Of a DNA stretch of 64,000 bases, positions 14,958 to 19,716 are shown piece after piece. The stretch comes from Escherichia coli. Its GTDB lineage: Bacteria > Pseudomonadota > Gammaproteobacteria > Enterobacterales > Enterobacteriaceae. The stretch's first letter is position 1; each line of letters opens with the position of its first letter. The stretch lies in NCBI RefSeq assembly GCF_009931435.1, contig NZ_CP043414.1, one strand, 5' to 3'. The position numbers and the translations under genes were made by a program. The notes beneath the pieces were generated by a model. It ran no database searches, had not been told where the DNA came from, and saw only the letters and a list, made by a program, of their open reading frames with translations.

Positions 14958-17026
<2,069 letters not shown>

Positions 17027-17034
17027 ATAAAACA

Positions 17035-17064
17035 GGAGGCGAAGGTGCCTCCCGTTTTATTTTG
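17035..17064 (+). terminator. rho-independent terminator after envZ
   Basis: Stem ggaggc/gcctcc followed by cgTTTTaTTTT. Confidence 0.7.
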
Positions 17065-17189
17065 TGCACTCAGTATCTACTGAATGAATACGGTTTCAGA
17101 CATCGGCACCATACGAAGTAAAGTGTACTGTAAGCTGATTGCAGGCTAGCGTATCCTGATTAGTAAAAGCACACTAAAGGAATAGCTTG

Positions 17190-18473
17190 ATGCAACTTAC
17201 CAACGAAGAACAAGTACAGATTGCTCGTATAAAAGAAAAAATCCCACGCATTGCCGCACTGGATCCTGAATGTAAGTTATTCGGTTCTGAAGGTTGGAAA
17301 TATCAATGGCCGAAGCCTGCCAGCGAGGCGGAAATAGCTTCCTGGGAGAAAAAACATAGCGTCACTTTGCCACGGGAATATCGAATTTTTCTTCGCTATA
17401 TCGCTAATGGCGGTCCGGCACATGCCTACGGTCTTGAATCTTTAGGCGGTACAGATATTTATGGCGATATAACAAAAGAAAGCCCTGTACCGCTTTATAT
17501 GACGCAGCAGGATGTTGATGTGTTGAATGCTGGCCGTACAGAAGATGATGAAGAATATAGTTTTTTTGACGGCGCATTGACCATTCTCACCCTGGGATGT
17601 ACTTATGATATTTGCCTGGTGGTGACGGGGCAGTATCGCGGAAGGTTAATGCTGACTGATGGTGATGAAGATTATCCGTTTGATTTTATATATGATAAAA
17701 ATTTCCTCAACTGGTATGAACGCTGGCTGGACGATTTTATTGCTGGCATGAGTATGAAGGGTTTCGATAGAAGTTTGCCAGGAACGCAAATTCAACTGCG
17801 TGAGTGGTTTTTAACTGAGAAAATCCCGGATTTACGTAGATCCATTTTATTCTCGCTATGCCGTTTTCCACAGATAGAACCCGAAACTTTTGCCCTTTGG
17901 GAACATGTTTGCCGCACAGAGAATGATAAAGAATTGTGTGAAGAGGCATTCATAAGATTACGCCAAAAAAAAGTTTCTTGTGCTGCAGATATTTTTCGAC
18001 TCTATTTTACAATGCCAGATGAATTACGTGATATTGCTATTAAAGATCTCCGTTTTGCCTGTAGAGATAGTGTGGTGAATATTGAGGATTATATTCATTC
18101 ACTGTTAATAATAATGCCTGAACTTGACGATGACACTCTATCCTCAGCTGTCTTTGCTATACGAGAAACAGAGTATAATAAATATGATACTTTTCTGCCG
18201 CTTCTCGAACGTATCACTGATGACCGTCAGCAAACATTATTGTGGGCGATGAGTAAGGTGCCTGATTTCAATGAAAGCCGAGGATTCGTTGAGTTGGTAT
18301 TACCGCTTTTTGCATCATCAAAGATGGAGAATGTAAGGAAGGCTATTTTGTTGCTCATTGAAGTTAAAGATAATCGTATTCCACCATTGGTTGATGAAGC
18401 TGCAACTCGTTTCCCTGAACTGACCATTTTACGAGAAAACTACTATCTCAGGACGTGGGGACATAAGCCATAA
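17190..18473 (+). CDS. SMI1/KNR4 (SUKH-1) domain protein with C-terminal helical-repeat extension; accessory cassette gene 1
   Basis: ATG at 17190 preceded by AGGA; N-terminal roughly 190 aa carries SUKH-1 hallmarks (WEKKHSVTLPREYRIFLRYIANGG ... FLNWYERWLDDFI); C-terminal roughly 230 aa is leucine-rich and helical; region visibly AT-rich. Confidence 0.7.
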   Translation: MQLTNEEQVQIARIKEKIPRIAALDPECKLFGSEGWKYQWPKPASEAEIASWEKKHSVTLPREYRIFLRYIANGGPAHAYGLESLGGTDIYGDITKESPVPLYMTQQDVDVLNAGRTEDDEEYSFFDGALTILTLGCTYDICLVVTGQYRGRLMLTDGDEDYPFDFIYDKNFLNWYERWLDDFIAGMSMKGFDRSLPGTQIQLREWFLTEKIPDLRRSILFSLCRFPQIEPETFALWEHVCRTENDKELCEEAFIRLRQKKVSCAADIFRLYFTMPDELRDIAIKDLRFACRDSVVNIEDYIHSLLIIMPELDDDTLSSAVFAIRETEYNKYDTFLPLLERITDDRQQTLLWAMSKVPDFNESRGFVELVLPLFASSKMENVRKAILLLIEVKDNRIPPLVDEAATRFPELTILRENYYLRTWGHKP

Positions 18474-18510
18474 ATTAATGGTTCAGAAATGATCTAACGC
18501 GGAGAAAAAT

Positions 18511-19041
18511 ATGATCAGGGAACATATTCAGCAAGCGATAAATAATAGGTTAGCATTTGATGGCCCATTCAATGTTGTTCCTGAACCTGCAAGCACTGCG
18601 TTTGATAGCCGGATCCCGACATTGAAAAACGGTGTCTGGCAGAAGGCCAGCCCTATGTTGCAGGCGCGTTTTGCACATTGTGGACGTTGGTTAAGCGCTA
18701 CACATGGAAGCTGGCTAAGTATAAGTGACATGGAAACGCTTTGGCAGGAACACATAGAAGATACGTTTCTTGATGAAATCAAAATGAATGCTGTAGCTTC
18801 AAGTGATAATTGGGATAACCATGCCTTGGGACTATTTCGTTCTCATCGCCTGTCACTTTTTGCCGGTAGTGATTACAGTTATGAGATGGTTTTTCTCCTT
18901 TGGCTAGATAGTACCGTTGAGCCAGAGGTCTGGGTTTATGACTGCAATGGGGAATCACGTTATAAAGATCTTAATGATTACCTGAATGCATATATTAATG
19001 ATGACGTAAGCGCCTGTGAGCGCTCCTGGCGAGTAGAATGA
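18511..19041 (+). CDS. hypothetical protein, possibly immunity-like; accessory cassette gene 2
   Basis: 176-aa ORF, ATG with GGAG RBS 7 bp upstream; 37 bp after gene 1; no TM segment seen; family not recognised. Confidence 0.55.
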   Translation: MIREHIQQAINNRLAFDGPFNVVPEPASTAFDSRIPTLKNGVWQKASPMLQARFAHCGRWLSATHGSWLSISDMETLWQEHIEDTFLDEIKMNAVASSDNWDNHALGLFRSHRLSLFAGSDYSYEMVFLLWLDSTVEPEVWVYDCNGESRYKDLNDYLNAYINDDVSACERSWRVE

Positions 19042-19664
19042 ATAGCCCCCCTTGCCCCTTTGATCCACAAACCGCACATTACCTCGGTACAGTGCAAATC
19101 CACTACACCTCAACCACCTTCAACGCTGCCGTTAAGCATTATACCTGTTACATTAAAAAGCGTTTTAAAGGGGTTAAATGGGGAATTGGTACCGCTGGCT
19201 TATTGGCTATATTGCCCATGATCCCACAATGGTTGAAACCTTCTCATGACTTTAAACTCAACGCAATCAGTACGTTAATTCTTCTATTAATGTTGCCACT
19301 CCTCTTATCAATGTTCCTGTTAATCAGCAGAAGAATTAACGATTTTAAGTCAAAAACAAAGCAAGTTACTTTTACGAAACCCGTGCGTTATGCGTTTTAT
19401 TTCGAGGGGATTGTTTTTTATGAATCTCATCAGCAGGGCATACTTCGCTGGGAAGATTTTTATAGCATTGAGTATGAAGAAGATTATTTGTGGCTTTTTC
19501 TGCATTTACCGAAGAGTTGGCCCAGAGAAGCGACGAAAGCGTTTTGCGATATTTTCATTCCCACCAGCGCGATAAAAGCGCAGCCTGAACTGGATACGTT
19601 TTTTCGTGAAACACGCCACTCGCTGGATTATCTGTTTGTCCCGTTTAATTCTGACAGAAAATAA
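19038..19664 (+). CDS. two-TM membrane protein with C-terminal soluble domain (YcxB/bacterial PH-like by eye); accessory cassette gene 3
   Basis: 208-aa ORF; start overlaps gene 2 stop by 4 bp (ATGA); two hydrophobic helices (WGIGTAGLLAILPMIPQWL; AISTLILLLMLPLLLSMFLLI) then about 100-aa soluble tail. Confidence 0.55.
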   Translation: MNSPPCPFDPQTAHYLGTVQIHYTSTTFNAAVKHYTCYIKKRFKGVKWGIGTAGLLAILPMIPQWLKPSHDFKLNAISTLILLLMLPLLLSMFLLISRRINDFKSKTKQVTFTKPVRYAFYFEGIVFYESHQQGILRWEDFYSIEYEEDYLWLFLHLPKSWPREATKAFCDIFIPTSAIKAQPELDTFFRETRHSLDYLFVPFNSDRK

Positions 19665-19700
19665 AAAATCCCCCGTATCTGGTGAAACGGGGGATTTCGT
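19662..19700 (-). terminator. rho-independent terminator of pck, also closing the cassette
   Basis: Stem tcccccgt/acggggga; on the minus strand it is followed by TTTTTTA; lies 3 bp after the gene 3 stop and 17 bp after the pck stop. Confidence 0.7.
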
Positions 19701-19716
19701 CGCTTAACTTATCGGA

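Follow-up and report, generated by a model that had tools for sequence, protein, structure and literature searches.

The window analyzed here is a 64,000-nucleotide (nt) stretch of the Escherichia coli chromosome (RefSeq assembly GCF_009931435.1, contig NZ_CP043414.1), and the subject of this study is gene A, which encodes a 427-amino acid (aa) protein (17190–18473, plus strand), together with the accessory islet in which it lies. Gene order in this part of the window is tex(yhgF)-greB-ompR-envZ-insert-pckA-yhgE. The pck and envZ stops, 75 bp apart in K-12, are separated by approximately 2.7 kb in the window; homology to K-12 stops at position 17058, just past the envZ terminator hairpin, and restarts at 19716. 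Delimited by this break and by its low GC content (0.38–0.44, compared with 0.53–0.58 in the flanks), the islet between envZ and pckA spans approximately 2.6 kb (17063–19705, plus strand) and holds three closely spaced, co-oriented open reading frames (ORFs), designated genes A, B, and C. An earlier note on this DNA, made from the letters alone, had described gene A and missed its membership in a three-gene islet. RefSeq names the gene A product an 'SMI1/KNR4 family protein' and the products of genes B and C 'hypothetical proteins'. The entire islet was found in 18 of 5,426 complete E. coli genomes, in every one at a DNA identity of at least 99%, and it is also present in E. albertii.

The gene A reading frame is called from a TTG at 17187 (17187–18473, plus strand), while RefSeq begins the same protein (WP_032185310.1) at the ATG at 17190; an AGGA lies approximately 9 nt 5' of the gene A start. 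The envZ stop codon ends at 17026, and the 163 nt between it and the gene A ATG have no room for a toxin ORF, in agreement with the earlier note, which had seen no upstream toxin gene in a gap of about 160 bp. The envZ terminator hairpin (17035–17062, plus strand), a terminator-like site GGAGGCGAAGGTGCCTCC followed by a T-run, is also found in K-12 and is kept 5' of the islet. Because this terminator is retained upstream, gene A must have its own promoter within 17063–17189; a promoter scan of this interval did not find a strong consensus match.

Pfam and fold matches assign residues 1 to approximately 190 of the gene A protein (17190–17759, plus strand) to an alpha+beta SUKH-1 (SMI1/KNR4) domain that ends in an FLxWYERWLD helix. 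Pfam reported SMI1_KNR4 (PF09346, i-E = 2.7e-6, residues 43–152) and SUKH_6 (PF14568, 3.4e-5, residues 46–169). An AF2 model of the protein, with 24 homologues as input, reached a pLDDT of 89.9 and a pTM of 0.82, and its N-terminal domain matched BF1740 (3d5p), YobK (2prv), and Knr4 (6qbr/8aj2) in a Foldseek comparison with the PDB (probability 1.0; TM of 0.5–0.58, normalized to the target). The SUKH-1 signature that the earlier note had read in the first 190 or so residues is thus real. The motif strings it quoted are present as well, but the spacing it gave (W-x3-E-x5-LP) is slightly off, as the motif reads W52-E53-x6-L60-P61-x2-Y64-x2-F67-L68-x4-N73-G74-G75. No hydrophobic stretch is found at the N-terminus, where residues 5–24 form an amphipathic helix in the model; the protein is therefore likely cytoplasmic, in the manner of immunity proteins against nuclease or deaminase toxins. 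Two outcomes that the earlier note had named as damaging to its proposal were looked for, namely the lack of a profile match to the SUKH superfamily and a match of the whole protein to an enzyme. The profile matches are significant, and Foldseek against the PDB aligned no enzyme to the whole gene A protein.

The C-terminal part, residues approximately 200–423 (17787–18458, plus strand), is a HEAT/ARM-type helical-repeat solenoid in which DSSP, run on the AF2 model, recognized 13 helices. A profile of the gene A family compared with the PDB retrieved alphaRep/HEAT-like designed repeats at E-values from 8e-18 to 1e-15, with the best match over profile positions 306–428, and more weakly MTH187 (0.013) and YibA (1oyz, 0.016). 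Foldseek paired this domain with designed armadillo/HEAT repeats, adaptor-complex subunits, CpcE/F, and E. coli YibA. These results uphold the suggestion in the earlier note of HEAT/ARM-type repeats over the last 230 or so residues. Pfam did not call a HEAT family on gene A itself; HEAT_2 (PF13646) was present in the precomputed annotation of four homologues (P0011 and P0017–P0019). The segment FLNWYERWLDDF (residues 172–183) falls within the SUKH domain, and LRRSILFSLCRF (residues 215–226) and ILLLIEVKDNRIPPLVDEA (residues 385–403) fall within the solenoid.

Close homologues (40–80% identity) occur in Escherichia, Klebsiella aerogenes, and Superficieibacter, and distant ones (23–33% identity), some of them with HEAT_2, in Saccharibacillus, Capnocytophaga, and Flavobacterium. 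When one genome per species was scanned, the WYERWLD motif turned up in 322 relatives, mostly in Paenibacillus; Chitinophaga, Capnocytophaga, Providencia, Kitasatospora, and further genera also bear it. An exhaustive search of 1.84 billion cluster representatives with the family profile gave 7,083 matches at E ≤ 1e-3, 2,858 at 1e-10, and 517 at 1e-30. The family spans several phyla, and among its best 150 profile matches most proteins are 430–480 aa long and cover both domains in one stretch. The invariant residues (G147, G151, R152, F166, F172, L173, W175, Y176, E177, W179, D181, F192, and G198) are concentrated in the last SUKH strand-helix and the linker. Given this conserved junction and the recurring joint coverage, SUKH and HEAT constitute a fixed, old two-domain unit rather than an occasional fusion, and the gene A layout is beyond chance, because the same arrangement recurs in hundreds of protein clusters. 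Longer members add a second SUKH domain, further HEAT repeats, or membrane segments, and never an enzymatic or signaling domain. The recognition of SUKH-HEAT as a large, fixed two-domain family is new here. A metagenomic member of 404 aa (P0202) has tandem SUKH-SUKH domains with a WYERWLD-type helix in both and is without HEAT repeats; judged by these predicted domains, it is a polyimmunity-style architecture inside the gene A subfamily.

Gene B (18511–19041, plus strand; 176 aa) encodes a divergent SUKH-fold protein of an Rhs-immunity family, a fold missed by Pfam, which returned only insignificant matches. Members of this family occur in Pectobacterium, Dickeya, Brenneria, Lonsdalea, Shigella/E. 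coli, E. albertii, Corticimicrobacter, and Caulobacter. In P. parmentieri, an Hcp-VgrG-DcrB-Rhs cluster contains a PAAR-Rhs gene of 1,423 aa, and the homologue (56% identity) begins 20 nt past its end. The second locus is a VgrG-DUF2169-PAAR cluster of E. coli AR Bank #0349 (AR0349) that includes an orphan Rhs C-terminal gene; the stop of this gene and the homologue (49% identity) overlap by 4 nt, and a further Rhs-CT/Imm11 pair comes after the orphan gene. The Rhs proteins of the two loci are homologous through the variable tip past the DPxGL motif, and Pfam recognized no family in this tip. Because its homologues directly follow homologous Rhs tips in two independent loci, gene B is an Rhs immunity gene. 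The AR0349-type tip was found in 31 E. coli genomes, the same number as the distant gene B homologue, and the accessions listed for the two overlap; none of the 31 coincides with a listed islet-bearing genome. In the window, gene B is accordingly an orphan. New here are the recognition of its SUKH fold and its pairing with one specific Rhs toxin tip.

Gene C (19038–19664, plus strand; 208 aa) encodes a predicted protein with two transmembrane segments, overlaps gene B by 4 nt, and is the constant, pckA-proximal member at this position. Its matches in Pfam and other databases (YcxB, MASE8, PycTM) are weak and insignificant, and its homologues do not extend beyond Escherichia, Salmonella, and close relatives. 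E. coli A30 carries an uninterrupted 346-aa gene (locus L096, 3566–4606) made up of a HEAT-like N-terminal part of 140 aa and the gene C sequence; in the window, genes A and B stand in place of this N-terminal part. In a Salmonella enterica genome (locus L101, 3348–5618), the N-terminal part is a separate 152-aa ORF (95% identical), and between this ORF and gene C lies an insert of 1.2 kb with a CdiI_5 immunity gene and then a CdiI_5 fragment. Gene C apparently represents the 3' two-thirds of the longer 346-aa gene, with a newly acquired start codon. We considered whether the HEAT-like part of the A30 protein derives from the HEAT domain of gene A, and the comparison showed no descent.

Homology of the window to the cargo-free A30 gene starts at 19059. 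In the Salmonella locus, the 23 nt of the junction, TTTGATCCACAAACCGCACATTA (19059–19081, plus strand), close the 152-aa ORF, and homology to gene C restarts at window position 19077, after the CdiI insert. From these edges it follows that the cargo boundary recurs within approximately 20 nt. As far as these alignments tell, the envZ-pckA interval is a polymorphic cargo slot, a description that is new here. In Enterobacteriaceae bacterium G50 (locus L102, 4744–4958), approximately 215 nt upstream of a gene C homologue are 76% identical to the 5' part of gene B; from this remnant, the linkage of genes B and C is older than the present islet. Between the stops of gene C and pckA, a hairpin, ATCCCCCGT-N10-ACGGGGGAT (19668–19695, strand unassigned), was read directly off the sequence. 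It is a probable terminator, with its T-run on the pckA strand, and it is absent from the output of the terminator scan because its loop exceeds 8 nt.

Three co-oriented genes in a low-GC islet could suggest a defense system, against phages or otherwise, in which gene A is the sensor subunit and genes B and C are its companions; gene C adds a very weak PADLOC match to PycTM (E = 0.0099). The three genes occur jointly only in E. coli and E. albertii, and elsewhere each is found apart from the others, for which reason we rejected a three-component A-B-C system. PADLOC gave no matches for genes A and B, PHROGs none for genes A, B, and C, and NCBIfam nothing useful for the three, genes A and B being without a model match. 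No effector or enzymatic domain was found in any of the three products, and the extra domains of longer family members are only SUKH, HEAT, or membrane segments. The second option offered by the earlier note, a SUKH-based sensor in a different kind of system, loses its footing on these results and on the lack of conserved effector neighbors in the survey described below, and we consider a defense sensor highly improbable.

Comparison with E. albertii NBRC 107761 (locus L015, 9712–12950) shows the same A-B-C islet. Past it, the 159-bp envZ 3' end recurs with its terminator; the islet there is thus flanked by a direct repeat. In this type strain, gene A has a premature stop at codon 212 (AAA to TAA), precisely where one domain gives way to the other. 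When E. coli is compared with E. albertii, the ratio of nonsynonymous to synonymous substitution rates (dN/dS) comes to 0.20 for the whole of gene A (SUKH part, 0.15; HEAT part, 0.28), 0.37 for gene B, 0.37 for gene C, and 0.006 for envZ. The synonymous rate (dS) is 0.20 for genes A and B, 0.36 for gene C, and 0.46 for envZ (window 17190–19041 versus 15674–17026, compared with L015). The lower dS of the islet suggests that it was exchanged after the divergence of the two species, and the dN/dS of 0.20 indicates that gene A is maintained but fast-evolving, as far as such rates can tell.

These data bear on the idea that the islet is what remains of horizontally acquired DNA in decay, with gene A having no current function in this strain. 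The premature stop in NBRC 107761 would fit decay, as would the resemblance of gene C to a 5'-truncated gene, the remnant of gene B in another enterobacterium, and the failure of the scan to find a convincing promoter upstream of gene A. Set against this, gene A is intact at a DNA identity of at least 99% in 18 complete genomes from different hosts and countries, and its dN/dS of 0.20 corresponds to purifying selection on both domains. A functionless gene A is accordingly very unlikely in our judgment.

To describe the surroundings of gene A homologues, ORFs were called in the fetched loci and the neighbors were clustered, which covered approximately 75 non-redundant loci. In K. aerogenes and Superficieibacter, and between yoaA and yoaB in a second lineage of E. 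coli, the homologue is a solitary insertion among housekeeping genes. No universal partner and no conserved effector or housekeeping neighbor family was found across the surveyed loci. In Capnocytophaga, the distant homologue lies in a long same-strand array of small genes of unknown function, with an Imm-NTF2 gene immediately downstream, and the Saccharibacillus homologue lies in a comparable array. Several candidate partners were dismissed. Five large upstream proteins from Paenibacillus, Chitinophaga, and Lewinellaceae were weighed as toxins and matched pilus/DUF11-type proteins, a surface protein sorted by the type IX secretion system, or, weakly, NACHT/caspase; no polymorphic-toxin family was matched by any of the five. 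The 170-aa gene after the Superficieibacter homologue was tested as a homologue of gene B and is not homologous, and the Xenorhabdus locus (L090) contained fragmented ORFs only.

Taken together, we think it rather probable that the gene A product is an orphan immunity protein acting in the cytoplasm, and that its islet is a small polyimmunity locus without a toxin gene. Gene A is co-oriented with and adjacent to the Rhs-immunity gene B, CdiI_5 occupies the same slot in a Salmonella genome, Imm-NTF2 lies by the Capnocytophaga homologue, and a SUKH-only relative on a Serratia plasmid belongs to an orphan array of CDI/polymorphic-toxin genes. Small polyimmunity loci devoid of toxins have been described in polymorphic toxin systems by Zhang, de Souza, Anantharaman, Iyer, and Aravind (2012; PMC3482391), in whose account SUKH is the commonest immunity domain, HEAT repeats are one immunity type, and some immunity proteins join SUKH with other binding domains. 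YibA, a HEAT-repeat protein, is reported to neutralize RhsA-CT (PMC3150448, citing Vlazny and Hill). Orphan immunity genes acting against non-kin effectors are experimentally established elsewhere, as reported for a Serratia Rhs NADase (PMC10539506) and for gut Bacteroidales (PMC12247911). The reading of gene A as an immunity-type binder in an orphan islet follows from the pattern of Zhang et al., the YibA precedent, and these known orphan genes; that its product binds a toxin, and which toxin, we infer.

The islet resembles the polyimmunity loci of Zhang et al. (PMC3482391) in its small size, its lack of a toxin, and its two or three immunity-type genes on one strand, with SUKH as the common denominator, and the gene A polypeptide resembles their polyimmunity proteins in joining SUKH to a second protein-binding module. 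In form, gene A agrees with this class, with SUKH and HEAT in a single polypeptide encoded in a three-gene islet without a toxin. The HEAT part may or may not be an immunity module of its own, as the two domains always occur together and share a conserved junction. In contrast, SUKH+HEAT was not seen among the fusions given by Zhang et al. (PMC3482391), and rather than being shuffled, the gene A architecture is old and invariable, with at least 517 clusters, a spread over several phyla, and an invariant junction. Stand-alone SUKH proteins, such as B. subtilis YobK for YobL, RhsPI (RhsP-WHH, 8bd1), and Tdi1 of Tde1 (8g0k), are single-domain proteins of 130–200 aa whose genes directly follow those of their toxins; gene A has an extra solenoid of 230 aa and no toxin neighbor. 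YibA (1oyz), among the structural and profile matches of gene A, exemplifies a HEAT-type solenoid as an E. coli immunity protein, but it is without SUKH, is encoded after rhsA next to its toxin, and its similarity is generic. As in orphan immunity arrays (PMC10539506, PMC12247911), the cognate effector is absent from the same genome, the genes are strain-variable, and protection against non-kin is the proposed role. Those arrays usually lie by type VI secretion system (T6SS)/Rhs loci or mobile elements, whereas this islet sits between two housekeeping operons at a recurrent junction. The SMI1/KNR4 label of gene A was already in RefSeq, and a 2012 publication had set out both this type of locus and the notion of composite immunity proteins.

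Several observations weigh against an immunity role. None of the approximately 75 non-redundant loci has a recognizable polymorphic toxin beside a SUKH-HEAT member, and gene A was in none of them directly downstream of a cognate toxin, a position in which gene B homologues do occur. Among 149 operon-like neighbors searched with Pfam, toxin and Imm families were not enriched, and an Endonuclease V (EndoV)-like gene alone stood out. Many homologues are solitary amid housekeeping genes. The SUKH-HEAT architecture is invariable across phyla, unlike the shuffled proteins typical of polyimmunity, and an hhalign comparison of the gene A family with YibA gave a probability of 5%, a similarity generic to repeats only. 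The earlier note had proposed an orphan immunity protein with an added interaction scaffold. Its orphan part agrees with the toxin-less islet, gene B, and the CdiI_5 slot, but since no family member in the surveyed loci lies beside a recognizable polymorphic toxin, the immunity reading is only partly supported.

The solitary homologues, together with the common occurrence of one copy per genome, could also be explained if gene A were a protein-protein scaffold acting on the cell's own machinery, comparable to Smi1/Knr4 in yeast or Syd-SecY, with a second host partner brought in by the solenoid. The fold matches include Knr4, Syd, and FBXO3, which are regulators of the SUKH superfamily, and the fixed architecture with its highly conserved domain junction is compatible with such a role. 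A host scaffold is more difficult to reconcile with a gene that is rare and patchy in E. coli (18 of 5,426 genomes), low in GC, located in a variable cargo slot by an Rhs immunity gene, and interrupted by a premature stop in the E. albertii type strain; moreover, the survey found no conserved housekeeping neighbor. We regard this role as quite unlikely.

The EndoV-like gene is the sole recurrent immediate neighbor. It encodes 169 aa and ends approximately 20 nt upstream of the SUKH-HEAT gene in nine Paenibacillaceae loci (Paenibacillus/Cohnella), at positions approximately 9450–9970 in L038, L053, L059, L061, L070, L074, L076, L077, and L081, with the gene A family member starting at approximately 10001. 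Pfam assigned PF04493 in 9/9 (best 1.5e-10) and NCBIfam assigned deoxyribonuclease V (1e-6). The ORF retains the AVDV, KRELP, VVDG, and IGVAK motifs and is without the normal EndoV N- and C-terminal parts. Each of the two genes is approximately 80% identical over the nine loci, and the outer flanks all differ, because of which the nuclease-SUKH pair resembles a mobile two-gene cassette. A phmmer search of the mini-EndoV and of a 239-aa Paenibacillus neighbor against the PDB gave nothing, and a paper on deaminase toxins (PMC3239186) makes no mention of a link to EndoV.

These loci raise the alternative that SUKH-HEAT proteins inhibit a small intracellular EndoV-like nuclease carried on a mobile cassette, with the E. 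coli gene as a partner-less descendant that would guard against such nucleases or has drifted to another target. The recurrence of this neighbor in nine loci with differing outer flanks speaks for such a pairing, as do the preserved catalytic-type motifs and the nuclease-to-SUKH order, which is the usual order of toxin and immunity genes. The pairing is limited, though, to one clade, which shares approximately 25% identity with the E. coli protein, the enterobacterial copies have no EndoV-like gene nearby, and the putative toxin could equally be a repair enzyme backing up immunity to deaminase toxins. We hold this alternative unlikely. A low probability likewise attaches to the broader proposal that the whole family is a dedicated inhibitor of an undescribed mini-EndoV toxin, not a generic polyimmunity fusion; the pair would then be a mobile toxin-immunity or defense-like cassette that is intact in Paenibacillaceae, and the enterobacterial copies would be orphans caught by a site-specific cargo slot within a resident gene between envZ and pckA, a slot that in a Salmonella genome has also taken up CdiI genes. 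An EndoV target is compatible with an orphan role in E. coli.

Under the orphan immunity model, the islet proteins would be made constitutively. In the gene A protein, the SUKH domain is predicted to be joined through the near-invariant FLxWYERWLD helix to the HEAT-type solenoid, which would pack against it. The solenoid could either enlarge the SUKH binding surface for one toxin or act as a second immunity module. When non-kin Enterobacteriaceae inject toxin domains through T6SS/Rhs or contact-dependent inhibition (CDI), the islet proteins would bind these domains and neutralize them, and so shield a strain that produces none of these toxins.

If this is true, a few E. coli lineages carry a ready shield against toxins that they do not make, and such shields could help decide contact-dependent fights in the gut. 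The large, unnamed gene B family now has a SUKH fold and an Rhs toxin type assigned to it, and the envZ-pckA junction emerges as a slot for the swapping of immunity genes between Escherichia and Salmonella. The target toxin of SUKH-HEAT proteins, once found, would provide another toxin-immunity pair and a test of whether solenoids extend SUKH specificity. The results on the gene A islet do not overturn current understanding.

Two further observations concern relatives of gene A. A DUF7638/DUF7639 protein is encoded just 5' of the SUKH-HEAT homologue in both Capnocytophaga (Bacteroidota) and Saccharibacillus (Bacillota) (L012, 6492–7508, and L013, 7026–7961); a 125-aa ORF intervenes in Capnocytophaga, the two genes are immediately adjacent in Saccharibacillus, and the linkage thus spans two phyla. 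The Serratia marcescens plasmid pAM01 (L099, 6001–6627) encodes a relative (54% identity) that consists of SUKH alone, ends directly after WYERWLDD, and is probably a truncated family member. It is flanked by debris of an insertion sequence and an intron (an IS21 istB remnant and a group II intron), and its surroundings are an orphan array of CDI/polymorphic-toxin genes with Ntox17/Imm31, DUF637 (CdiA) fragments, DUF596, and a deaminase cassette.

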